From an uncultured virus (IMG/VR IMGVR_UViG_3300027977_000020) (Duplodnaviria; Heunggongvirae; Uroviricota; Caudoviricetes): DNA of 64,000 nucleotides. The notes under the pieces were generated by a model. That model searched no databases, was not told the origin of the DNA, and worked only from the letters and a program-made list of their open reading frames with translations. The stretch lies in the IMG/VR virus record IMGVR_UViG_3300027977_000020; one strand, 5' to 3'. Position 1 is the stretch's first letter; each line of letters begins with the position of its first letter. This document shows positions 126 to 63,065 of the stretch, one piece after another. Both the position numbers and the translations under genes were made by a program.

Positions 126-356
126 TAAACAGTGCTGTTTATTAATATACTTAAGGCGGGGTGGTACTTAGTAAATAATTAAATGCTAAGTAACACCTAA
201 CAATGTATTAAGTATTAACTAAACCTAAGTAATAAGTAATAGATAACTAAGTATTAAATAACATTTAGCTATGTGTTAAGAATTATACAGTACTGTTTAA
301 TACTTATTTCCTATCACCCCCCGCGCTAGTTGTTGATAATTATACAGTGTTGTTTA
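126..356. repeat. Three copies of a 16-bp near-palindrome TAWACAGTRYTGTTTA within AT-rich inverted-repeat DNA
   Basis: TAAACAGTGCTGTTTA 126-141, TATACAGTACTGTTTA 284-299, TATACAGTGTTGTTTA 341-356; copies 2 and 3 lie in an imperfect ~41-bp inverted repeat (261-301 / 339-379). Confidence 0.8.
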
Positions 357-441
357 ATTAATAACATATAACTAAATGTATAATTGATAACAACTGCCCT
401 AAGGCTCACCTAATGATAAGCAACGCTTATGGTTCACCTGG

Positions 442-471: not shown

Positions 472-605
472 GGGTTCAACCGAACGGGAAACCGATCGGC
501 CACGCCTAGCCCGCGGCTCCTGTCATAGGATTCCAAAGCTAAACGAGGCGAGCCATGTGAAGCTAAGCCTTCCCGCTCCCATTGTTAAGCTTTGTAACAA
601 CCCTA

Positions 606-634
606 TCGACAAGCTGCCGATCCCATGCTAGGCT
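606..634 (+). promoter_or_regulatory. Putative sigma70-type early promoter P2
   Basis: TCGACA-17bp-TAGGCT with extended TGn; followed by GTTCAA and a GC hairpin (643-662), same layout as P1. Confidence 0.55.
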
Positions 635-640
635 TAGTTC

Positions 641-1239
641 AAGCGGGGGGAGAACCACCCGCCACTACATAACAGCTCAGCCATCGGTTGATCTGGCCCG
701 GAACGGGACGTCATACAAAGTAACCGAAAGGTGAGAGTATGAGACGACGGATCATGGCGCCTAGATCTTCTCGACAGGCTGTTGAACTGATACCCCTGAG
801 GCTAGTAGCCATAGGATTGGTGTGCCCATAACCTCGCGAGAGGCTAAGCCCCAACCCAGCACTAGAATCTCCCACCCAACCGGTTGATCCTGCGCGATCG
901 ACTAAGGCAGGTTTGGAGCTAGTGCCTTGCCCGAAAGGCCCTTGGTTCATGCTGTAGAAAGTTATCTTCCTACAGTCTAGCTGCGTTATCTATTACCATG
1001 ATTCAACGCCAGGCAAGCCAGGTTAGTGACCTGTAAGAAGTCCAGGGATTGATTGTGGGAACGGTAACTCAATACAAACACAATTCTCACCGGGGGTGGT
1101 GTGTCCTTTCCTGTCACACATGCAGGGTATCTGTACACTTCAGCGCTTAGCGAACGCTGGCCACCCGCATTTTTAACAATTTAATAACATCCATGCTCTG
1201 CATGCGCTTTATGCTCTACTTTAGGTAGGGCTTTTTTTT
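641..1239 (+). ncRNA. Candidate large structured non-coding RNA (family unassigned)
   Basis: No credible ORF; GC-richer than flanks; more than 12 nested helices with GNRA-type loops; bounded by promoter P2 and the terminator at 1213-1239. Confidence 0.6.
1213..1239 (+). terminator. Intrinsic terminator
   Basis: GCTCTACT-TTA-GGTAGGGC stem followed by T8. Confidence 0.65.
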
Positions 1240-1402
1240 CGGGATTGTATCCTACCGGGGCCATACATTGCTTAGCAGTGTTCTCGGTAGGGTACTTAAT
1301 CTCAGCTTAATGATCATTTATGATCACGATGATTCTCTCACTAAACTAACAAGTTTACTGAGGGATTCTCTCCCTCAAAATCACACAAACCAGGTGCTAA
1401 TC

Positions 1403-3268: not shown

Positions 3269-3997
3269 ATGGCTCAGCAACTCTGCATCGGTAAAGGTAA
3301 CGCTAAGTTATCTAAATCCACGCTCACGTTTAGTATACCTGCGGGGCGAACTTGTCCAGGCGCCAGAGATTGTAAGGCTTGGGTGAGTGCAGGTAAGATT
3401 GTTGATGGTCCCTATGTAATCTTCAGATGCCTTGCAGCATCTAACGAAGTTATGTATCCCAACGTGCATAAGTCTAGAGTTGATAACTTAAATGTTATCG
3501 CTGAAGCACTTAAAGAAGATCAATATACATATGCCTCACAGATATTAATCGATAGCATCCGACCCAAAGTAACTAAAAGCATTGATAAGTTTAGAGTTCA
3601 TCCATCGGGTGACTTTTTTAGTGAGCGTTATTTGGCTACATGGTTACTGGTAGCTCAACAATTTCCAAGCATAAAGTTTTATGCTTACACTAAATCACTG
3701 CATATGTTTGTACACGAAGGCAAGTTAATAGATCTTCCCAGTAATTTCTACATCACAGCATCTGCGGGCGGTGAGTATTCACACTTGGAACACTTATTCC
3801 CACGGGTTGCCTACGTTGTTAATACTGAAGAAGAAGCTGAAGCATTAAACCTAGAGATAGATCACGATGATTCACACTGCTTTGGTAATAAATCTTTTGC
3901 CTTGTTAGTGCACGGAACACAGCCAAAGAATAGTATTGCAGGCGCTGCAATCCGTAAGCGTAGGCAACAAGGTAAGCATGCAGGTTATAGTAAGTAA
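3269..3997 (+). CDS. Gp88-like phage protein (Cys-rich, radical-SAM-like fold)
   Basis: GNAKL, TCPGARDC...C, RVHPSGDFFS and FYAYTKS motifs typical of the Gp88 family. Confidence 0.75.
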   Translation: MAQQLCIGKGNAKLSKSTLTFSIPAGRTCPGARDCKAWVSAGKIVDGPYVIFRCLAASNEVMYPNVHKSRVDNLNVIAEALKEDQYTYASQILIDSIRPKVTKSIDKFRVHPSGDFFSERYLATWLLVAQQFPSIKFYAYTKSLHMFVHEGKLIDLPSNFYITASAGGEYSHLEHLFPRVAYVVNTEEEAEALNLEIDHDDSHCFGNKSFALLVHGTQPKNSIAGAAIRKRRQQGKHAGYSK

Positions 3998-12693: not shown

Positions 12694-12711
12694 AGCCTAG
12701 CCCACCTGTTT

Positions 12712-12736
12712 GGGCGTCCTCTGGGCGCCCTTTTTT
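12712..12736 (+). terminator. Intrinsic terminator
   Basis: GGGCGTCC-TCT-GGGCGCCC followed by T6. Confidence 0.75.
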
Positions 12737-12739
12737 ATT

Positions 12740-14635
12740 ATGAATTTATTGTATTTAACATCACAAGATAAGTTTGATAAAGCTTTAGTTCAATTAGATA
12801 AGATCAAAAAACTTTGCATTGACACTGAAACAACTGGCTTAGACGCTCGTATAGCAGATGTTAGGTTAATTCAAGTTTGCTCTACAGAAGAAAACGATGA
12901 TGACAGGGACATCTACGTTTTTGATATGTTTAAGATTCCAGATCACAGCAAACTAAAAGCTTTTATTGAAAGTCGCGAGATGCTCGTGGCTCACTCAATG
13001 AACTTTGATTTCCAGTTCCTATTAAAAATAGGAATTGATTACAAGAATAAAATATTTGACACTTATATTGCGGAGCGTTGTTTACGTGCTGGCTTTAAAG
13101 AAAAACGAATAAGTCCGCAAGCTAAAAAACCTTACTTTGCAGACGTGTCGTGCAGCTTAAAAGCTGTTGTGAAACGACGACTAGATATTGAACTAGACAA
13201 AGAAGAACAAAGATCTGACTGGTCTAAGGAAGATTTGAAGATTGAACAGATTGAATATGCAGCTAAAGACGTAGACCTCCTCCCACGGGTGGCGGCCAGC
13301 CAATTAAAAGAACTTGTGGAGGAGTCTTTACTTGATATTTATTCACTTGAGTCTAAGTGTATTCGATCTGTAGCTACTATGTGTCACAAAGGATTTAATG
13401 TAGATGTTACTAAACTAATGGAACTAAAACTCAGCATTAGTAAGGAGCTTACAGATAAGACTCTAGAGTTTTGTACGGCACTAGACAGTGCACTTCCTGA
13501 AGAACTTAAACTCCCTAAAAATTTAGATGGAACGTTAGCTATAGGGAAAAAACCGAAGAAAGAATTTAACCCTGGATCAGGAGTGCAGTGCATCCGACTG
13601 TTTCAGGAATTAGGGATTAATCTGCCTGTGGATGGAACAACTGGTAAGCCTACACTTTCCCAGGTTGCTTTAAGTGAATTCGATAGCGAGGACGAAATAC
13701 TAAATATGTACAGAAAGAGAGTGAAAGTAGAAACTAAATTAGAGCACGTAGAAAAACTTATAAATAACATAAATCCGATAACTCAACGAATCCACAGCGG
13801 TTATAACCAATACGGTGCTAATAGCGGTCGGTTTACGTCCTCAGGCGCAAAAAAACAAACAGCTACTAAGGAGAAAACAGAGTTTGCAATTAACGCTCAA
13901 CAAATACCAAGGAGCAACGAATTTAGAAGTTGTTTCAAGGCACAAGCTGGTTACAAACTTGTAATTTGCGATTTTTCGCAGATTGAACTCCGGTTAGGGG
14001 CAGAATTGATAAAGATCCCTCAAATGATCGAAGCTTTTAAAAACGAACAGGACTTACACACGGTTACTGCGAGTTTAATTTACAAAATTCCTGTAGCGGA
14101 GGTACAAAAACACCAGAGGCAGGAGGGAAAAACACTTAATTTTGCTTTGTTGTATGGAATGGGTTATCGAAAATATAAAACTTATGCGGCCCAATCAGGC
14201 AAAATTATCTCGTTATCAGACGCTAAGGTAGCGCACACAGCCTTCCACACAGCATATCCACGGCTGCGTGAGTGGCACCGCGAAAGATCGGCCATGGTTG
14301 CTGATGGCTGGTGCTATGTTCGCACTCCGTTGGGTAGGCGACGACTTTTGTCTTATGACGATGCTCTGATGACGGCTTGTGCAAACACGCTAATTCAAGG
14401 AGCGGGTGCAGACATACTTAAGCTTTCTTTGGCTGAACTAGGTAAGTATCTAGACGAAGAAGCCTCATTGGTGGCTTGTGTGCACGATGAAATTGTCTTG
14501 GAAGTTATCGAAAGCAAAGCAAACCAATTTAAAGAAATTCTTGAGAAATCAATGACATTGGCAGCAGAGACTATTTTAAAAGTTGTTCCAGCTAAAGCCG
14601 ACGCTTCTATTGCAGACACATGGGCAGAAAAATGA
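12740..14635 (+). CDS. polA: Family A DNA polymerase with 3'-5' exonuclease domain, no 5' nuclease domain
   Basis: ExoI DTET, ExoIII YAAKD, motif A DFSQIELR, motif B KTLNFALLYG, motif C VHDE. Confidence 0.95.
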   Translation: MNLLYLTSQDKFDKALVQLDKIKKLCIDTETTGLDARIADVRLIQVCSTEENDDDRDIYVFDMFKIPDHSKLKAFIESREMLVAHSMNFDFQFLLKIGIDYKNKIFDTYIAERCLRAGFKEKRISPQAKKPYFADVSCSLKAVVKRRLDIELDKEEQRSDWSKEDLKIEQIEYAAKDVDLLPRVAASQLKELVEESLLDIYSLESKCIRSVATMCHKGFNVDVTKLMELKLSISKELTDKTLEFCTALDSALPEELKLPKNLDGTLAIGKKPKKEFNPGSGVQCIRLFQELGINLPVDGTTGKPTLSQVALSEFDSEDEILNMYRKRVKVETKLEHVEKLINNINPITQRIHSGYNQYGANSGRFTSSGAKKQTATKEKTEFAINAQQIPRSNEFRSCFKAQAGYKLVICDFSQIELRLGAELIKIPQMIEAFKNEQDLHTVTASLIYKIPVAEVQKHQRQEGKTLNFALLYGMGYRKYKTYAAQSGKIISLSDAKVAHTAFHTAYPRLREWHRERSAMVADGWCYVRTPLGRRRLLSYDDALMTACANTLIQGAGADILKLSLAELGKYLDEEASLVACVHDEIVLEVIESKANQFKEILEKSMTLAAETILKVVPAKADASIADTWAEK

Positions 14636-20778: not shown

Positions 20779-23556
20779 ATGAAGTTCATTTGTTCTGTAA
20801 ACGAAGTAGTCGCTCAGCACGTCCATCCAAAAACTGGAAAGATACCTGTAGGCGGAAACTTTGCAGCATTCAACCTTAATTGGGTAGCAAAGGAGCTGAC
20901 TGCGTCAGATCTAGCAACCGAGTTATCACAGGGTTATGGTCTATGCGCGTGGCACCTACTTGAAGGCAAGAGACAATCCGAATCGACCGGCGTAATTAAA
21001 GCCGGAATGATCATAGTTGATATAGATAACCAGGAAGATCGGAAAGATTCCGATGGAAACAAGGTACAGAGACAAGAACTTACTTTTGACCAAGCACTCG
21101 AACTAGATATTTGCAAAAAATATCTAACGCTTGCCTATTACTCTCCCTCAACAACATCAGAGTGGCCACGGTTCAGATTAGTTTTTGGTTTAGAGAAACC
21201 GATAATTGACCCAGGGTTTTATAAATTTTTTACACAGAAAATATACGCACAGATTCCTGGTTCAGATATAAGAGCTACAACAGTACCCAACCTTTTTTAT
21301 GGCCCCAAAAAAGGTGAGAAAGTTTTTGAAATATCTGGGAACTACATCCCAGCTTCAAAACAAGATGAAGCTCACAAAGTATATTTAGCTACACCAAAAG
21401 AAGAAAGCCGGGACGATAAGACTGCCGAAGACATAATGAATACATTAACAATCAGTGAAGAAGGACTAGATCTTAAAAAATTGGTGTCAACTACTGTACG
21501 CTCAGTTTTAGATGGCGAGGCAGTAGAGGACCGAAGCTCAACAATGGCAGCGGTTTTTAAGGAGCTCATAGGCTGGAGTAATTGGTTGACAACACATGGT
21601 ATGCCTGTGTGCGCATCAGCGTTGACAGTAGCACACCAAGCGTTCTATAATATCTATGCCTACCCTCACGACCTGGACAGCAAATTTGACCGAATCTTAA
21701 ACTCGATAAAAGACGCGACTGACATCCAGCCTGCGATCGCTCTGGCTTCAGACTTAGGTTCTTTGGCCATATGGAAAAAAATTAAGAACATCGACTACAA
21801 GCTCTATCAACAACATGCGACTGAAGAGATCAAAGAACAACTCAAACAACTCAAAAAAGCACAAGTAAACGCTGTCCTAGATTTTTCTTCCTTTCTACTC
21901 GACAGCCCGATTGAAACCAAACCAGACACGGCTATCTCAAAAACTACACAAGAAAATCAAATGCAAGTCCCATCAACACCCACACAGCTGATCAACCTTC
22001 AAAACGCAGGGAATAGTCAAAACCGTCAGTTCTCTGAGAACGATGTCGCAGACATAATCGTCACTAATCAAGGCGACGACTTTCTGTACGACAGTAGCCT
22101 AGATCAGTTTTATCACTACGACTTTGATTACGATCTGTGGTATCAACAAGACGAACAACATATCAAACGAAGGATTGTTAAAGCACTCGACTCATTTGTT
22201 TTAGCTGGTGTATTGCCTAAATACACTTCAGCAACAATAAACAGTGTGTACTTAATACTGAAAGCCAAGCTTTTGCGCTCCGATGACGGAGGTAGAAAGA
22301 GTATTTGGAGTAAGTCAAAAGGTCTTATTGCTTTCCAGAACGGTGTACTAGACACGCGCACATTTGAATTCTTGGAGGGAAAACATAAAAATTTATTCTT
22401 AAGACATAAACTGCAATACGCTTACAACGGTAAGGCAAAGTGCCCGGAGTTTAAAGCCTGGTTAAAGAGCTCTCTTAATGCGGGCCAGGAGCTTCTGATT
22501 CAAGCTTTTGCCCGAGCAATACTAACGGGTTATACAGCAGGAGAACGGTTTTTACACTTAGTCGGTCCTGGCGGAACAGGAAAGTCAACCATGCAACAAA
22601 TCATGGTTGCGTTAGCAGGCTTTCACGGAACACATACGTCTAGCCTTGAGATTATTGAGACTAACAAATTTGAAACGTACAACCTAATCAGCAAGCGCTT
22701 GCTGTTGCTTACAGACGAAAGCAACTACAACAAACGTATGGACATACTTAAAAAGCTCACCTCCGCCTCAGATACACTACGTGCCGAGCGAAAGTACGGC
22801 AAAGAGATTATCAGTTTTAAACCTGAGTGCTTGGTCTGTATAGCTAGTAACGAACACATAACGTCTAACGATTCTAGTAGTGGACTCGAAAGGAGACGAC
22901 TTACGATTCTTATGGACAAGGTTGTACCTCCTAGTTCCAGAAAAGAACTAATCAGTGTCCACGATGATCACATCGAAGGGTCGTTTGAACCTGAAATGAG
23001 TGGCATCGTCACATGGGCGCTGTCTATGTCTTACGACCAAATGAAGGATGTTTTAGCTAACCCAACTAAGCATGTGCCTTCACTCAACAAGACAAATATA
23101 GATGCGCTCTTGTTCAATAACCAATTTGTTTCGTGGCTTAACGACTGTTGTCTGTATGCACCAAATACGCACACACCTATTGGTCAAGGAGCACGAAAGC
23201 CCTCGGTGGATGAATCCGAAAAAGGTATGTACGTATCAAACTCATATGGTGCTCTGTATCCTAGCTATGCAAACTTCTGCAAGGCCTGTGGCTATAAGCC
23301 AGCAGCTAAACACAGATTCATTGAGCGAACCAAAGAAGCTCTAATCAACATCCTTAAACTGGACGGCATTGAGCTTCTGTTAAAAGATGGTATTCCTTCT
23401 ATGAAGGGTTTGCGTTTGAAAGGATATGATCTAAAGTCGGACCGGGCTGCAACCGGGCCTGATCGACTGCCCTCACCAGTTGAGTTTGCTCAAGATCCCA
23501 CGACATCCATCTGGAACTCTGCCTTTCAAAAACATGACACGCCTACCGAAACTTGA
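20779..23556 (+). CDS. Primase-helicase (AEP-like N-terminus, D5/P4-type SF3 helicase)
   Basis: VDID and SPS..WPRFRLVF at the N-terminus; FQNGVLD, GPGGTGKST, DE, RAERKY, ASN and RR in the helicase region. Confidence 0.9.
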   Translation: MKFICSVNEVVAQHVHPKTGKIPVGGNFAAFNLNWVAKELTASDLATELSQGYGLCAWHLLEGKRQSESTGVIKAGMIIVDIDNQEDRKDSDGNKVQRQELTFDQALELDICKKYLTLAYYSPSTTSEWPRFRLVFGLEKPIIDPGFYKFFTQKIYAQIPGSDIRATTVPNLFYGPKKGEKVFEISGNYIPASKQDEAHKVYLATPKEESRDDKTAEDIMNTLTISEEGLDLKKLVSTTVRSVLDGEAVEDRSSTMAAVFKELIGWSNWLTTHGMPVCASALTVAHQAFYNIYAYPHDLDSKFDRILNSIKDATDIQPAIALASDLGSLAIWKKIKNIDYKLYQQHATEEIKEQLKQLKKAQVNAVLDFSSFLLDSPIETKPDTAISKTTQENQMQVPSTPTQLINLQNAGNSQNRQFSENDVADIIVTNQGDDFLYDSSLDQFYHYDFDYDLWYQQDEQHIKRRIVKALDSFVLAGVLPKYTSATINSVYLILKAKLLRSDDGGRKSIWSKSKGLIAFQNGVLDTRTFEFLEGKHKNLFLRHKLQYAYNGKAKCPEFKAWLKSSLNAGQELLIQAFARAILTGYTAGERFLHLVGPGGTGKSTMQQIMVALAGFHGTHTSSLEIIETNKFETYNLISKRLLLLTDESNYNKRMDILKKLTSASDTLRAERKYGKEIISFKPECLVCIASNEHITSNDSSSGLERRRLTILMDKVVPPSSRKELISVHDDHIEGSFEPEMSGIVTWALSMSYDQMKDVLANPTKHVPSLNKTNIDALLFNNQFVSWLNDCCLYAPNTHTPIGQGARKPSVDESEKGMYVSNSYGALYPSYANFCKACGYKPAAKHRFIERTKEALINILKLDGIELLLKDGIPSMKGLRLKGYDLKSDRAATGPDRLPSPVEFAQDPTTSIWNSAFQKHDTPTET

Positions 23557-56785: not shown

Positions 56786-57792
56786 TCAAGCGTCGAAAGA
56801 GTAGGCAACGGTGACGAAGTCAGCGTTCAGAAGTTCGAAACCTGCGTACAGGCTCCAAATCATCATGATGAAACGGCTGAAGTCATCGTTGTTGTTGAGT
56901 AGCACTTGGGCGTTGTTACCGCCAATGCCAACTCCAGTGGACTGCGGACCAAAGAAGATACCGATCGCAGAGTTGTAGCTCTGTGAACTGGATGCAATGG
57001 TCGCAGCCTGTGTTTGTGTAGGCATGTTGGTGCTTTCGAAGAAGCGCACACCTTCAAACACAAAGCCCGTGGGCATAATCGGTTCGCCAGCCACGAAGGT
57101 AGCTTGACCGAAGCCCTGACCCATGTACAGAGCAGCGTTAGGCTGCATGCCGGACATAAGTGGGTTGATTTGACCGTTGCCAGGGTAACGAGCAACTTCA
57201 CGGAAGTCACTGTTCTGACGCAGGTGCATCAAGAAGGTAGGATCGCAAACACAGCGATAGAAACCGTCTTGGAAGGTAGGAGTGTTCCTCTTACGCAGGC
57301 TCTTCACCACGCGCAAAAGGTCATCCTTAACGTCGAATTTGGCTTGTTCGGCGTTGGTATAGCTAAGACTTCCAACGGCTAGATCGCCAGGGAAGTAGTA
57401 ACCACCTTGGGTGTCAGAAGACTGACCCTTTGATACTGCTTTAAGGAGTTCATTGATGAACACCCGATCACGCCAACGACGATAGTCGTCGAGCAAAGTC
57501 AGGCTACCAATGGATTGGTGGAAAGTTGTGAGGCTGCCGGTATCCAGCAAAAGACGCTGGGCAGTGATCAGAGTCTCGCGAGCAATTTTGAAAGTGCTTG
57601 GCTGAGTTGGATCACTAGGGTCAGCAGGGCCGGTGTACTCCTTAAGAGTCACCTGAACCTTGTCCTTCACAATGTTGCGGCTGTTTGCAGTACCGATTGT
57701 TTGCTCGGCAGTGCGCTCGCGAGATTCTTTGGAGCCAGGGTTACCGAAGAAACGGTAACGATCAAGCTGAACCGTCTGGCCGGGTTGTTTTG
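56786..57792 (-). CDS. Major capsid protein, exon 2
   Basis: KQPGQTVQLDRYRF..., VTLKEY, GVRFFES and DDFSR segments resemble HK97-fold (N4 gp56-like) capsid proteins; joins exon 1 in frame (371 aa total). Confidence 0.8.
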
Positions 57793-58789
57793 CCTGAAAT
57801 GCTTCGATGAGCACCGTGAGGTTCTTTATCCTCACGTAACATCAACTTAAGGACGTTGATGAGTAGACTATATCATCACCCACAGCAAGAATTATCTTCT
57901 GTTTGGGTGTTCCGCGCTCGTGTCACCTTATCGGCTTCTACAACAAATTTGTTGCGGTCAGCCTCGCTCCACTTTGACTTACCTCGATTAGTTCGAGTGT
58001 CGTAGCGAAGGTCGAACTTGTAGCTCATGGCTTTACATCCGTATGGTTTTAAAGCCTCTACGAACAAACGAGCTTGAGTGCCGTTACCACGAAGATTCCA
58101 TTTATTTGGACTCTTCGTTTTCATCGGCTCTCTCGGAGTTAATGAGGCTCCGGTTAAGCTCTCGATCCAATCGGACACAAATAAAGCTGTGTCATAAGGA
58201 ACGTATAAAGCCAGCTCTACAATACGCTCCCGTACATAAGGTTCTCCTGTTTGCGTGGATTGACCACGCTTGCGAAGATGAAGGTTTCCGTCGTCCATAT
58301 AAAGAACGGCTAATCCCTCTAAGCCAATATCCCGTAGAAAAGAAGGTGTGAGCACCTTTATTCCTTGTGGGTATAGCTCCTTATATAAAGGAAGCAGTAG
58401 CTCTTGTTGATTAGACCACCACTGACAACCAGGAAAACTTCCTGATTGGTTTGTGCATACTCTATCCTTAACTGGCTGTTTTATTCCAAAAATTCTGTTT
58501 AAGCGTCCCACTTTCCAGCGGAGATACTCAAACTGTTTTTTGGAGTGCGTGAGCACGAGATTCGGATAAGTAACTTGATGCCTTAGACATCCGTCACCTA
58601 TACAAACACCTTTAAGGAACGAGCGGTCGCTTCGAGAGAGCATTCGAGCAGTGTTAGTCGTTGAACCTTCCAACCATTTCGGGTTGGCTTGGCTGCTGAT
58701 TGACCTCCCTTACGGGTCCGGCTTTCCAGCAATTCACGGAATTGTTCGACCGAGCTTTCACTCGGAAGTTCCCAGACCTTAGCAGGTCA
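57793..58789 (-). mobile_element. Group I intron (997 nt) in the major capsid gene
   Basis: P AATTGCTGGAAA, Q AATCAGCAG, R GTTCAACGACTA, S GATATAGTCT; P1 with U-G at the 5' splice site; P2 CCGAGT-GAAA-GCTCGG; P9 hairpins; terminal G; splicing restores ...VHDF-S-KQPG. Confidence 0.92.
57876..58643 (-). CDS. Intron-encoded double-motif LAGLIDADG homing endonuclease
   Basis: FLKGVCIGDGCL and GLAVLYMDDGNL motifs; inserted between R and S (P8 region); ATG 58643 preferred because 58673 lies inside the ribozyme core. Confidence 0.88.
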   Translation of the reverse strand: MLSRSDRSFLKGVCIGDGCLRHQVTYPNLVLTHSKKQFEYLRWKVGRLNRIFGIKQPVKDRVCTNQSGSFPGCQWWSNQQELLLPLYKELYPQGIKVLTPSFLRDIGLEGLAVLYMDDGNLHLRKRGQSTQTGEPYVRERIVELALYVPYDTALFVSDWIESLTGASLTPREPMKTKSPNKWNLRGNGTQARLFVEALKPYGCKAMSYKFDLRYDTRTNRGKSKWSEADRNKFVVEADKVTRARNTQTEDNSCCG

Positions 58790-60418: not shown

Positions 60419-61336
60419 CTAAGAAGCATCCATGAACAGGAGCTTGCTGCGAAGAGCTTCGGGCCCAATCTGACTGAGATAACGCCAGGCGTTCTCTGGG
60501 CTGCGATTCATCACGTCACCAAAAGTCTCCCACTGTTGTTGAGGAGCTGGTGCCTGAGTAGACCCACCGGCATTAGCAGGGGGTGCGGGCATATCGTACC
60601 TGGGCTGATAAGCCTGGGGAGCTTGTTGACCTTGTCCGGGAGAGTCAATGTCCACAGGATAGACTTCAGTGAAGAAGCGGTCAGTATAGTTGGCTAAGTG
60701 ATCGGGATTGGTCAAGATAGTCTCCATAGCGTCGTGACGCAGTGCGAGATTATCCATACGACCCGCCTGATCCATCAGCATGTCCTCAAGAGCACAAGAG
60801 TACTGATTGAGAATGCCTGGAGCCTCGATACCGAAGTGGTTAACTACGGCGTGAGTTGCGGGGCTTAGACCGTGTGGGCCGCTTTGTGGGGCCGTAGAAG
60901 TCTGCGAGGAAACCTGGGTCGGTGAGACGCTGGTAGGCAAGGTCTGCGCTACCTGCTGTGCCTGGTAAGCCCAAGGTTGGACCTGTGAAGCCAGATTGCT
61001 CTGTTGAGTAACCTGCGGCTGTGCCACCTGGTAAGGCGACGGTTGAGCCTGGCTGGGGTACGGCGGGTTGATCTGCGTAAGCACCCGCTCCAGTGAACCC
61101 ATCGCTGCTTCCCACGGATTGTTGGGGGAGGACGGCGACGTTAACTGGTTGTACTGGCTGTTGGTAGTAGGCCCCGTAGTCGGTATTCCCGGCGACGGCA
61201 ATTGGGCTGTAGCTGCCGAAGCTACCGCCGGGGTAGGCGTTTGGGTTACCCACTGGGGGTAAGCGGTTGAGCCCTGGTCCGAGGCTACTGCCTGGGAGAC
61301 CGGGCTCGGGGTCGAAGCTTGGATCTGCTGGCTCAT
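60419..61336 (-). CDS. Putative scaffolding protein
   Basis: Q/P/S-rich N-terminal half, helical C-terminal half; lies between portal-like and capsid genes. Confidence 0.65.
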   Translation of the reverse strand: MSQQIQASTPSPVSQAVASDQGSTAYPQWVTQTPTPAVASAATAQLPSPGIPTTGPTTNSQYNQLTSPSSPNNPWEAAMGSLERVLTQINPPYPSQAQPSPYQVAQPQVTQQSNLASQVQPWAYQAQQVAQTLPTSVSPTQVSSQTSTAPQSGPHGLSPATHAVVNHFGIEAPGILNQYSCALEDMLMDQAGRMDNLALRHDAMETILTNPDHLANYTDRFFTEVYPVDIDSPGQGQQAPQAYQPRYDMPAPPANAGGSTQAPAPQQQWETFGDVMNRSPENAWRYLSQIGPEALRSKLLFMDAS

Positions 61337-63065
61337 AGCTACCCGAGTAGGTTAGTTCTTCCGCGAGATGGTCGAAAGTTCTATAGATTAGCGGAGTGAT
61401 ATTCAATCTCGGATCAGCTGCAAGCGGTTGGTTAGGCGCAAGCGGATGAGGAGATTGCAACATCTGTTGTAATAATACCAGAAATTGTTGCATAGCTGAC
61501 TGAGTTTGTTGAACCATACGGAAAGGGAAACCCCTCAACATTTCAGCCCGCTCAGCATCAGTTTTTTCTGGAAATAAGAACTTCAACGCTTCTATACTAT
61601 CAACTCCCAGCTCTTGTAGGTTACGAACAACAATAGATTTTTGGTTTACATCGTAAGCCGTATCTTCATAAACATCACCTTGATACCTATAAGTAACTGT
61701 ACGATCACCATCTTCTGGTAACCCAATAACCCCACGAGGTACTTTATTCTCTGCCAGGGCCACCTTCATCACCTGATTTAGCTTCCCTTCAAACTTTACA
61801 TTTGCAATTTGATACTTTTCAATTGCTTCAGGTGTTTGTTCTGTCGGAGGCTTTGGTTCTTTTAAACCCGAAGCAGCTATAAATGACTCTCGAAAAATTA
61901 ATTCTTGGTGATAAATCATCATCTCAAGGAGACGATTAAATCCATACGCAAGAAATGATTTATTTTTTCTTAATGCTGTGGCCTGAGCTCGACCCATCAA
62001 ACCTTTAATTTCAGTCGCAGTGGCACCGGCTGAAATTGAAATCTCATCAACACCACCTAATGCAGTACGTATCTCTTCTCTTAACAACAAAAGATATCTG
62101 CTCATGTCCCCGTTAACGGGGTCAGGTGTCATATAGCCCACACGGTCGGAAGGTTCTACGTTCGCAATAATTCGCGGAACACGCAGGCCACCACCCATCG
62201 AGGCGCCGAAAGGTTCACTTACTCTTGTCGACGGGCTATCGACTCCAGAAAAACCACTCTGACTGCTGATCGTAGGTCTAAAAGTTGACTGACTATCTGA
62301 CGCTTCGACAAGATCACTACGTGGACGCGAACTAATTAGTGTTGGATTACCAAAAAATTCAATGTTCTTAGAAATGTTCCGTGCAAGTTGGTCGTGGAGA
62401 ACAATTTGCTCCATAAAAGGATCAAATTCGCCTTCTCCCTCTGTTCCACTTGCATTTGGTTTGTTTAATACCTCGACAGCTGGTATAAAACCAAGCATGT
62501 TAGGCCTTTTTTTACTTGGAGTTAAAATTGCACCTGGTTCAAGCTCAAAACTTAATTCACTATCAGTTTCGACCTCACTAATCTCTTCAGCTGTAATAGA
62601 AAGTCGAACGTACCGTTTATTTTGCCCGTACGCATTACTAGGTAGACCTAAAGTACTGTTTTTAACTTTATAGCTGTAGATAATGATTACTTCTTCTACT
62701 TCACCGTTTACATCGTGATAAACGCGATATTGATTTTTGTTAAAAAAGTAAATCTGGTATTTTAACTTTGGGTCAGGGCGAAAATAAAAAAGACCAGCAC
62801 CATCAATTAAGAAATTCCTGATAATCGAAGGAAATCGAATATCAATCTTATTCAGCTTTATGACGTTGTCTAAAAACTTTGAACGACTTTTATACGTATC
62901 CTGATCACAGTAGAATGTTACACCCTTCTTAATCATAAGAAGAGTCATCTGCTGTAAATGGCTTAAAACAACCATCGTGGCCGATTGGTTGCTTCGATCC
63001 TGGGTGCGTGAGGCCTCCAGGATCTCATTAAACCGTTTTCTGGTCTCAGTTGAGCTCGCAGACAT
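60840..63065 (-). CDS. Putative portal protein
   Basis: 741 aa; IEFFGNPTL, IRTALGG, SAGATATEIK and G...LLEM segments and position fit a portal. Confidence 0.7.
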   Translation of the reverse strand: MSASSTETRKRFNEILEASRTQDRSNQSATMVVLSHLQQMTLLMIKKGVTFYCDQDTYKSRSKFLDNVIKLNKIDIRFPSIIRNFLIDGAGLFYFRPDPKLKYQIYFFNKNQYRVYHDVNGEVEEVIIIYSYKVKNSTLGLPSNAYGQNKRYVRLSITAEEISEVETDSELSFELEPGAILTPSKKRPNMLGFIPAVEVLNKPNASGTEGEGEFDPFMEQIVLHDQLARNISKNIEFFGNPTLISSRPRSDLVEASDSQSTFRPTISSQSGFSGVDSPSTRVSEPFGASMGGGLRVPRIIANVEPSDRVGYMTPDPVNGDMSRYLLLLREEIRTALGGVDEISISAGATATEIKGLMGRAQATALRKNKSFLAYGFNRLLEMMIYHQELIFRESFIAASGLKEPKPPTEQTPEAIEKYQIANVKFEGKLNQVMKVALAENKVPRGVIGLPEDGDRTVTYRYQGDVYEDTAYDVNQKSIVVRNLQELGVDSIEALKFLFPEKTDAERAEMLRGFPFRMVQQTQSAMQQFLVLLQQMLQSPHPLAPNQPLAADPRLNITPLIYRTFDHLAEELTYSGSYEPADPSFDPEPGLPGSSLGPGLNRLPPVGNPNAYPGGSFGSYSPIAVAGNTDYGAYYQQPVQPVNVAVLPQQSVGSSDGFTGAGAYADQPAVPQPGSTVALPGGTAAGYSTEQSGFTGPTLGLPGTAGSADLAYQRLTDPGFLADFYGPTKRPTRSKPRNSRRS

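Follow-up and report, generated by a model that had tools for sequence, protein, structure and literature searches.

To our knowledge, only a handful of large (>500 nucleotides, nt) structured non-coding RNAs (ncRNAs) exist outside ribosomes, introns and RNase P. Among them, GOLLD and ROOL are phage-borne and form RNA-only cages, whose function is still unknown. On a smaller scale, the phi29-type pRNA, of ~170 nt and from small protein-primed phages, is a stand-alone structured RNA encoded where the early region begins; the host polymerase makes it from an early promoter, and it works in trans in an oligomeric form held together by loop-loop contacts; cis-acting antiterminator RNAs measure ~70-120 nt. 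In a preprint (bioRxiv 10.1101/2024.12.08.627333), GOLLD and ROOL are proposed to be particles that bind or enclose something or self-assemble, symmetric kissing loops are described for GOLLD and OLE, GOLLD is often, not obligatorily, located near islands of transfer RNA (tRNA) genes, and Rfam is stated to contain profiles for GOLLD, ROOL and OLE. In addition, a motif survey across IMG/VR (Fremin et al. 2023, PMC10690425) put forward 10,006 predicted candidate viral RNAs. Here we analysed a stretch of 64,000 nt, hereafter the window, from an uncultured Caudoviricetes virus (IMG/VR IMGVR_UViG_3300027977_000020), in which a first-pass annotation, made from the letters alone, had marked positions 641-1239 as a candidate large ncRNA. 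The locus very probably holds a real structured RNA gene on the + strand, and the reading that we prefer, with a rough probability of 0.55, is that of a free-standing ncRNA gene whose product would be a trans-acting, compactly folded early RNA of the GOLLD/ROOL kind. Its expression at the start of infection, as proposed in the first-pass annotation, would follow from the position and the promoter type only.

PHROG matches place the window in a phage: a family-A DNA polymerase (12710-14635) and a primase-helicase (20779-23556), and, on the minus strand, a major head protein (56786-57835) and a portal-like virion protein (60840-63065). The portal protein has a single similar GenBank phage, Synechococcus phage S-EIVl (46.8% amino-acid identity), a 79-kb virus of arctic lake origin. 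The window phage is an S-EIVl-like virus of ~80 kb, distantly related to S-EIVl. As for the known systems, the RNA resembles the HK022 put/EAR-type antitermination RNAs in its position, preceded by an early promoter, followed by a terminator and upstream of genes that such an RNA would control; those RNAs are 5-10 times smaller and consist of two stem-loops. Like the phi29-type pRNA of a lytic phage, it would be a stand-alone structured RNA at the start of the early region, but it measures ~760 nt instead of ~170 nt, belongs to a much larger virus than the small protein-primed phages, and has no Rfam match. Like GOLLD, which the same preprint describes as first seen in lake and marine metagenomes, with no known protein partner and with a conserved and a variable part, it is large (600-800+ nt), elaborately branched and phage-borne (bioRxiv 10.1101/2024.12.08.627333). 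As to location, PolA, primase, portal and major head protein mark the window as a phage, and the tRNA neighbourhood is absent (0 tRNAs in 64 kb). The Rfam covariance model of GOLLD, which represents its conserved 3' half, is unmatched in the window, and the variable parts are at both ends with the conserved part in the centre. ROOL (Rumen-Originating, Ornate, Large), in the same preprint a phage or prophage RNA of ~600 nt with a very complex fold and a proposed RNA-only assembly (bioRxiv 10.1101/2024.12.08.627333), is similar in these respects; its Rfam model is unmatched as well, and here there is no tRNA neighbourhood.

At the gathering score, Rfam returned no family for the whole 64 kb nor for eight related loci, in line with the suggestion of the first-pass annotation that the RNA belongs to no known class. 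At E<=10, positions 1-1500 on both strands yielded no large-RNA family (GOLLD, ROOL, introns, RNase P, transfer-messenger RNA (tmRNA)), and only chance-level microRNA and small-RNA matches, the best sub-threshold one being mir-582, which scored 31.8 bits where 84 is the gathering score and which lies in the AT-rich palindromes at 323-403. With ARAGORN, zero tRNA and zero tmRNA were obtained for the 64 kb. In keeping with the absence of a group I, tmRNA, RNase P or hammerhead core, already noted by eye, the intron, RNase P and small-ribozyme models of Rfam were unmatched. The literature searched on S-EIV1, GOLLD/ROOL, novel structured phage RNAs and cyanophage ncRNA yielded no description of this RNA, and a partial overlap with unnamed motifs of PMC10690425 is possible. 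We regard the RNA as a good candidate for a large phage RNA that is both new and unrelated to the known ones; in lifestyle it is similar to GOLLD and ROOL (large, ornate, phage-borne, from lake metagenomes).

The evidence for a selected structure comes from the comparison with eight metagenomic relatives, 87-99.7% identical to the window, which give nine sequences in total: L001, an IMG/VR contig that matches from window position 522 onward, and L024-L030, seven metagenome contigs found with a purine/pyrimidine pattern from the best-conserved stretch. Their alignment (A2, window 472-1245) gave an RNAalifold consensus of 190 pairs, in which standard pairs occupy 99.3% of the cells and 22 pairs are changed on both sides; by comparison, 500 shuffles gave 8.8±1.8 such pairs, none of them reaching 22, and six slid-partner controls gave 1-4. 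To avoid the circularity of a consensus derived from the alignment, the minimum free energy (MFE) structure of the window alone (244 pairs) was projected onto the same sequences. Standard pairs were found in 94.2% of the cells and 17 of the 244 pairs were changed on both sides, against 7.4±1.7 in 500 shuffles (0/500 reach 17) and 0-5 in six slid-partner controls. In both structures the compensatory changes are well above shuffled and slid controls, which upholds the original claim of a highly structured ncRNA. As an example, at 713/740 and 714/739 the pairs A-U and U-A give way to G-C and C-G, and L025 and L026 carry a U·G intermediate. Other changes are clustered in single lineages, such as three pairs at 818-820/851-853 in L024 and the pairs 996/1058, 1002/1052 and 1004/1051 in L027, and further compensatory pairs were observed at 723/732, at 833-835 with 840-842 (two or three in L026 at 833-834/841-842) and at 956/969.

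The same pairs give information on the strand. Alternation between Watson-Crick and G·U pairs was found at 26 variable pairs (74 cells), compared to four pairs (6 cells) with A·C. Hairpins capped by GNRA loops are four on the + strand and one on the - strand, with 1.1±1.0 in shuffles (23/1000 reach 4), and the loop at 933-936 changes from GAAA to GGAA, retaining the GNRA form. The G·U substitutions, the GNRA loops, the promoter and the terminator all favour the + strand.

The sequence points to a non-coding, GC-rich transcription unit at ~478-1239 on the + strand, of ~760 nt, with a predicted folded body at 535-1168. Its features are the following (helices from RNAalifold, promoter and terminator from scans):

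442-471, + strand: predicted sigma-70-type promoter from a consensus scan, -35 TTGACG (442-447), 18-nt spacer, -10 TAGTAT (466-471)
478-534, + strand: 5' leader with a short tandem repeat (unit about CGGCCACGCCTAGCCNGC) of variable copy number; zero consensus pairing predicted
535-593, + strand: 5' stem-loop domain of stacked helices 535-544/584-593, 548-553/575-580 and 557-562/569-573
602-662, + strand: second 5' domain, with hairpin 612-618/631-639 (12-nt loop) and hairpin 643-662 (AGAA or GAAA loop)
673-983, + strand: central multi-branched domain, closed by 673-677/979-983
678-781, + strand: long irregular arm of the central domain, with the tip ACC-GAAA-GGT at 723-732
783-949, + strand: four-way junction of the central domain, with hairpins 795-815, 817-854 (GCGA loop 836-839), 859-925 and 929-939
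951-976, + strand: hairpin of the central domain in the consensus
985-1068, + strand: first 3' domain, helices 985-989/1064-1068 and 996-1014/1040-1058, hairpin 1019-1033
1092-1168, + strand: Y-shaped 3' domain, closed by 1092-1100/1160-1168, with two sequence alleles
1213-1239, + strand: predicted intrinsic terminator, stem of 7-8 pairs, loop of 3-5 nt, T8

The predicted promoter matches 9 of the 12 consensus positions and is the sole sigma-70-like site on the + strand upstream of the RNA, 170 nt ahead of 641. All five sequences covering the site have an unchanged -35 hexamer and a -10 of the form TAnnnT (TAGTAT, TACTAT, TAGTGT, TATTAT), and in the spacer 6 of 18 positions differ in L025 and in L028 with zero indels. 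The terminator stem (1213-1231) has 8 pairs, 4 of them G-C, followed by T8; it is kept in 7/7 covering sequences with T8 unchanged, and the changes in the stem are one-sided and preserve pairing (U-G to C-G, U-A to U-G). Hence, of the earlier proposal that a promoter and a terminator bracket the RNA, both elements were found on the + strand, but the promoter lies outside the claimed start at 641. Because the promoter is at 442-471 and covarying helices begin at 535, the unit is better described as ~478-1239 than as 641-1239: the 5' limit had been set ~160 nt too far downstream, and 630-760 nt is a closer estimate of the size than the ~550-600 nt first given. Transcription would start near 478. 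In the leader, the GC-rich repeat (~495-520) is present in 1 to 3 copies among the relatives, with two extra units in L028 (2230-2330 of that locus, minus strand), and three independent contigs (L001, L026 and L030) start exactly at window position 522, in our reading because assemblies break at the tandem repeat. Between the end of the folded body at 1168 and the terminator there is an AT-rich linker with a small hairpin at 1192-1206.

Within the folded body, the 5' stem-loop domain has four compensatory pairs (alignment columns 129/161, 134/156, 142/151 and 143/150) and keeps the same fold in the divergent L026 and L028. In the second 5' domain the pair 646/659 changes from G-C to A-T in L029, and an alternative consensus pairing, 602-608/644-650, has one-sided changes only. 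The central domain contains 103 pairs, with standard pairing in 97.6-100% of cells per helix. The first 3' domain has three compensatory pairs in L027, where the change TTC>GCT at 1002-1004 is shared with a contig from an RNA library, and in the Y-shaped domain five pairs are changed on both sides between the two alleles (columns 687/759, 697/728, 699/726, 735/751 and 736/750).

The first-pass annotation had named 15 pairings by position or by sequence, and 10 of them are in the RNAalifold consensus: 709/737-746, ACC-GAAA-GGT, CCTC-GCGA-GAGG, 859/919, CTCC/GGAG, 882/896, GCC-CGAAA-GGC, 952/970, 1019/1033 and 1094/1161, six of which hold at least one compensatory pair. The other five (671/778, 680/754, CCCG-GAA-CGGG, 761/975 and 1052/1084) fall outside it. 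For three of these five the sequence is nearly invariant (at most 2 of 9 sequences differ at one position) and varies too little to judge the pairing; in CCCG-GAA-CGGG the pair G700-C704 is broken in 6/9 sequences, and 1052/1084 competes with the helix 996-1014/1040-1058, which has 3 compensatory pairs. No pseudoknot was established from the nine sequences. The motif CGGTTGATC does occur twice, at 685 and at 881, as had been noticed.

The identity of the relatives to the window varies strongly along the locus:

535-660: 74-100% in the 7 relatives covering it
741-817, + strand: hyper-conserved core in the central domain, 99-100% in 8/8 relatives
818-879: 79-100% in 8 relatives
880-947: 96-100% in 8 relatives
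1061-1170: two alleles, 54-58% (L025, L026, L027) and 96-100% in the others, 7 relatives
1240-1402: 99-100% in 6/6 relatives
1403-1714, coding: 88-100% in 6 relatives
1715-2184, coding: 67-100% in 6 relatives

The core at 741-817 is more conserved than the neighbouring protein genes, and in the same contigs where it is 99-100% identical the flanking genes drop to 67-89%. Both alleles of 1061-1170 form the same closing stem and two hairpins. Functional folded RNAs usually show this combination of a conserved core and variable peripheral domains.

The alleles of the 3' domain have sharp shared boundaries near 1060 and at 1164-1170, and one contig from an RNA library (X16) turns to unlike sequence exactly at 1164. 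This suggests that the 3' domain is swapped as a cassette, possibly by recombination between co-circulating phage strains.

Sequences of the locus were also present in RNA libraries. All four runs examined (4 studies, of sediment, freshwater sediment, lake water and a marine sample) gave contigs of 83-413 nt, with ~90-99% identity, on 550-1062, and some of the runs also cover 7-218, 1164-1250, 1180-1388 or 1922-2353. Changes at 713/714, 723, 732, 739/740, 818-820 and 1002-1004 recur in these contigs, and among the differences listed none falls between 740 and 818. The parts of 1-2400 that remained uncovered (241-480, 1441-1920 and others) are uninformative on expression. As a whole, the presence in RNA libraries is weakly positive for expression.

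Several points weigh against the reading of a structured, free-standing RNA. The contigs from the RNA libraries give neither strand, ends nor level, they may derive from contaminating DNA, the runs had been preselected for the stretch, and one contig (1180-1388) crosses the terminator. The consensus was derived from the same alignment on which the changes were counted, and only the structure from the window alone escapes this circularity. The nine sequences are close relatives, in which many compensatory cells are inherited together and the independent events are few, and the RNA was not found outside one phage cluster. Moreover, the folding energy barely beats shuffles: the better folding expected for 641-1239 was obtained only marginally, with z = -2.27 on the + strand (2/100 shuffles equal) and an equivalent z = -2.17 on the - strand (1/100), and 535-1170 gave z = -2.02. 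On the minus strand RNAalifold finds a similar energy and 21 double changes, so that energy does not choose the strand.

Weak energy z-scores that are the same on both strands, together with the fact that close relatives can beat column shuffles without any structure, could also be expected if the region had no functional RNA and were a fast-evolving spacer, or a protein gene that has decayed or escaped recognition, with GC richness and common descent producing the apparent structure. The slid-partner controls, however, keep the relatedness and still give 0-5 double changes against the 17-22 observed, several compensatory events occurred in single lineages (L024, L027 and L026), and the core is better conserved than the coding sequence around it. 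A gene is excluded by frame-breaking indels: as the first-pass annotation had stated, the segment is free of open reading frames (ORFs), the longest on either strand being 79 amino acids, and this one (711-950, minus strand) is disrupted by 1-nt indels in relatives. Since indels of 1, 2, 3 and 5 nt are scattered across the region in the relatives, a conserved reading frame is excluded. The segment is indeed GC-richer, 0.48-0.56 over 401-1200 against 0.36-0.47 downstream, with ~40% as the comparison level for the GC-rich unit. Taken together, we consider the absence of any functional RNA very improbable.

The contig that crosses the terminator is also relevant to a different explanation, in which the RNA would serve the early operon as a cis-acting leader: the genes from 1403 on would be transcribed from the promoter at 442, and the RNA with its terminator would be an attenuator, a processive antiterminator (HK022 put-like, far larger) or a platform for messenger RNA processing or stability. 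It is consistent with this that, from 471 to the first ORF at 1403, the consensus scan detects no further sigma-70-like promoter on the + strand, and that 1240-1402 is 99-100% identical in the six covering relatives, which suggests a tightly linked control region. On the other hand, the RNA has ~630 nt in five domains and a core conserved beyond the needs of base-pairing, unlike the antiterminators of 70-120 nt; the terminator is strong in form (8 pairs and T8) and conserved; and a weaker promoter-like TATGAT at 1319-1324, below the scan threshold, could serve the early genes. In addition, a related phage (L002) begins with the same gene, behind a region of equal length that contains neither a terminator-like site nor a homologous RNA. 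Thus, a leader seems unlikely to us, and we lean towards a stand-alone, trans-acting RNA.

The segment between the terminator and the first ORF (1240-1402) is an observation in its own right, as its identity in 6/6 covering relatives is above that of the genes downstream. It contains a direct repeat, GATTCTCTC, at 1331 and 1364 and a palindrome, TGATCATTTATGATCA, while the TATGAT mentioned above was noted by direct reading of the sequence. The segment probably serves the early genes as promoter and leader, or is a regulatory element of another kind.

If the stand-alone reading is correct, the host RNA polymerase would transcribe the RNA as the first rightward unit of a divergent control region, so that it could be made immediately on infection without need for translation. 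It would then fold into a compact multi-domain particle, with five multi-helix domains and several GNRA-type loops, and act in trans, binding or sequestering a host or phage macromolecule or self-assembling, as proposed for GOLLD and ROOL. Any specific partner, or self-assembly, is at best doubtful. As a lead only, the hexaloop at 890-895 with GCGC is invariant in 9/9 sequences and the 12-nt loop at 619-630 reads CAUG in six sequences and CACGUG in two (L025 and L029); these loop palindromes could be candidate kissing sites, and such short palindromes are common by chance. Still more specifically, and tentatively, the RNA could be the first representative of a new class of large, self-folding RNAs of phages, unrelated in sequence and fold to GOLLD, ROOL, introns and RNase P. 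It would be transcribed from a host-type promoter as soon as infection begins and would act without protein synthesis, for instance as a multimeric particle or by capture of a host defence or gene-expression factor.

Large size, multi-way junctions, GNRA loops and invariant runs in and around the junctions (741-817) are also typical of large ribozymes, and the RNA could be catalytic, either a very divergent known ribozyme (group I/II intron or RNase P) or a new large one. The Rfam intron, RNase P and small-ribozyme models are unmatched even at E<=10, there are no flanking exon reading frames, and no joints or spliced forms appear in the RNA-library contigs, which makes a catalytic RNA quite improbable. 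Specific candidates also lack support. For a group I/II intron, there is no Rfam match, neither side is flanked by an adjoining ORF (on the + strand the nearest gene begins at 1403, and the sequence upstream is non-coding) and no joints were seen in the RNA-library contigs; RNase P RNA and tmRNA have no Rfam match, and ARAGORN found no tmRNA; an antisense role within the phage is not supported, with no complementarity to the rest of the 64 kb longer than 15 nt or above chance, and with the 15-nt match in sense orientation.

The RNA unit is located in a particular context. Genes run rightward from 1403 to ~24 kb and leftward further on, and in the L028 locus, a 77-kb contig, an acetyltransferase-like ORF lies on the opposite strand directly past window position 1. 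Because the flanking gene directions diverge, 1-1402 can be regarded as a divergent non-coding control region, of which the candidate RNA is the first rightward unit. The 1.4-kb non-coding region could instead act at the DNA level, as an origin or a packaging region, with a transcript that activates or primes the origin (ColE1 RNA II-like or T7 origin-like) or with protein-binding palindromes. The divergent arrangement, the three 22-nt palindromic motifs in the AT-rich stretch upstream and the opposite-strand gene in L028 would fit such a role, as would the family-A DNA polymerase and the primase-helicase encoded by the phage and the long near-perfect palindromes that fill the analogous region of L002. 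The prevalence of G·U over A·C (26 pairs to 4) and the more numerous GNRA loops on the + strand argue instead for selection acting on an RNA and against duplex or cruciform DNA as its target, the unit is closed by an intrinsic terminator and does not run into an origin-like AT-rich site, and the GC skew has no turning point or origin signal here. For these reasons a replication or packaging element is improbable.

The 22-nt motif (about GATAATTAWACAGTNNTGTTTA) occurs three times, at 120-141, 278-299 and 335-356, in the AT-rich stretch upstream of the RNA promoter, and its core is a 6+6 inverted repeat. Window 184-380 is nearly unchanged in L025, L027 and L028. The three copies of GATAATTAWACAGTNNTGTTTA look like a set of operators or iterons in the divergent control region, to which a dimeric DNA-binding protein would bind. 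The ORF beyond position 1, at L028:2704-3369 (+ in that locus, on the strand opposite to that of the RNA), is directed away from the RNA gene, and the C-terminal half of its putative product reads as GNAT-acetyltransferase-like.

As for its distribution, the RNA family appears so far to be confined to one narrow freshwater phage cluster. The metagenomic DNA runs that contain the stretch are of lake water and fresh water, and nine runs of eight studies, a count that excludes five runs possibly being the source, hold 68-94% of the sampled words. A blastn search in 'distant' mode against 50,697 GenBank phages gave zero matches, and blastn and nhmmer searches of 1-1400 against 20 loci of related IMG/VR phages found a near-identical contig only. 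A covariance model (R1) built on 674-953 (284 columns) found the window itself only in 20 sources at E<=10, and 0/5 in the whole S-EIVl genome and 4 related contigs. Pattern scans of IMG/VR re-found one contig and those of GTDB genome contigs gave 0; the nearest virus record (G001) is a 50-kb fragment from which the region is absent. Given that all nine known copies are 87-100% identical variants of one phage cluster, 'class' is a generous term. In S-EIVl the GP88 homologue adjoins the polymerase gene with no large intergenic region nearby, so that this cultured phage is no test bed for the RNA.

If the preferred reading of a stand-alone, trans-acting RNA is true, the locus would add another unrelated large phage RNA and large RNAs would be a recurring phage strategy. 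The unit also has useful traits, as it runs cleanly from promoter to terminator at the very start of the early region, the allelic variation of its peripheral domains is a natural mutational series, and 478-1239 is a compact construct for structure probing and cryo-electron microscopy; its value is limited by the narrow known distribution in one freshwater phage cluster with no cultured host.

Downstream of the RNA, the first sizeable early protein is encoded at 3269-3997 and matches Pfam GP88 (PF17338, E = 2e-40) and PHROG 1392, of unknown function. The Pfam scan of the six small ORFs between 1403 and 3237 gave zero family matches, and the search for RNA partners among the early proteins (seven early ORFs scanned) thus returned GP88 as the sole Pfam match. 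The GP88-family protein of L002 is 70% identical to that of the window, and the gene order begins alike in the two phages, with the same first early gene behind a non-coding region of equal length. Aligned with MAFFT, the two regions share zero conserved blocks and no detectable similarity. The non-coding region of L002 (2800-3400) folds very strongly (z = -7.9, 0/20 shuffles as good) and contains near-perfect palindromes of 20-21 nt and 0 terminator-like sites; the same locus may thus house another RNA in this phage, or else an element acting at the DNA level.

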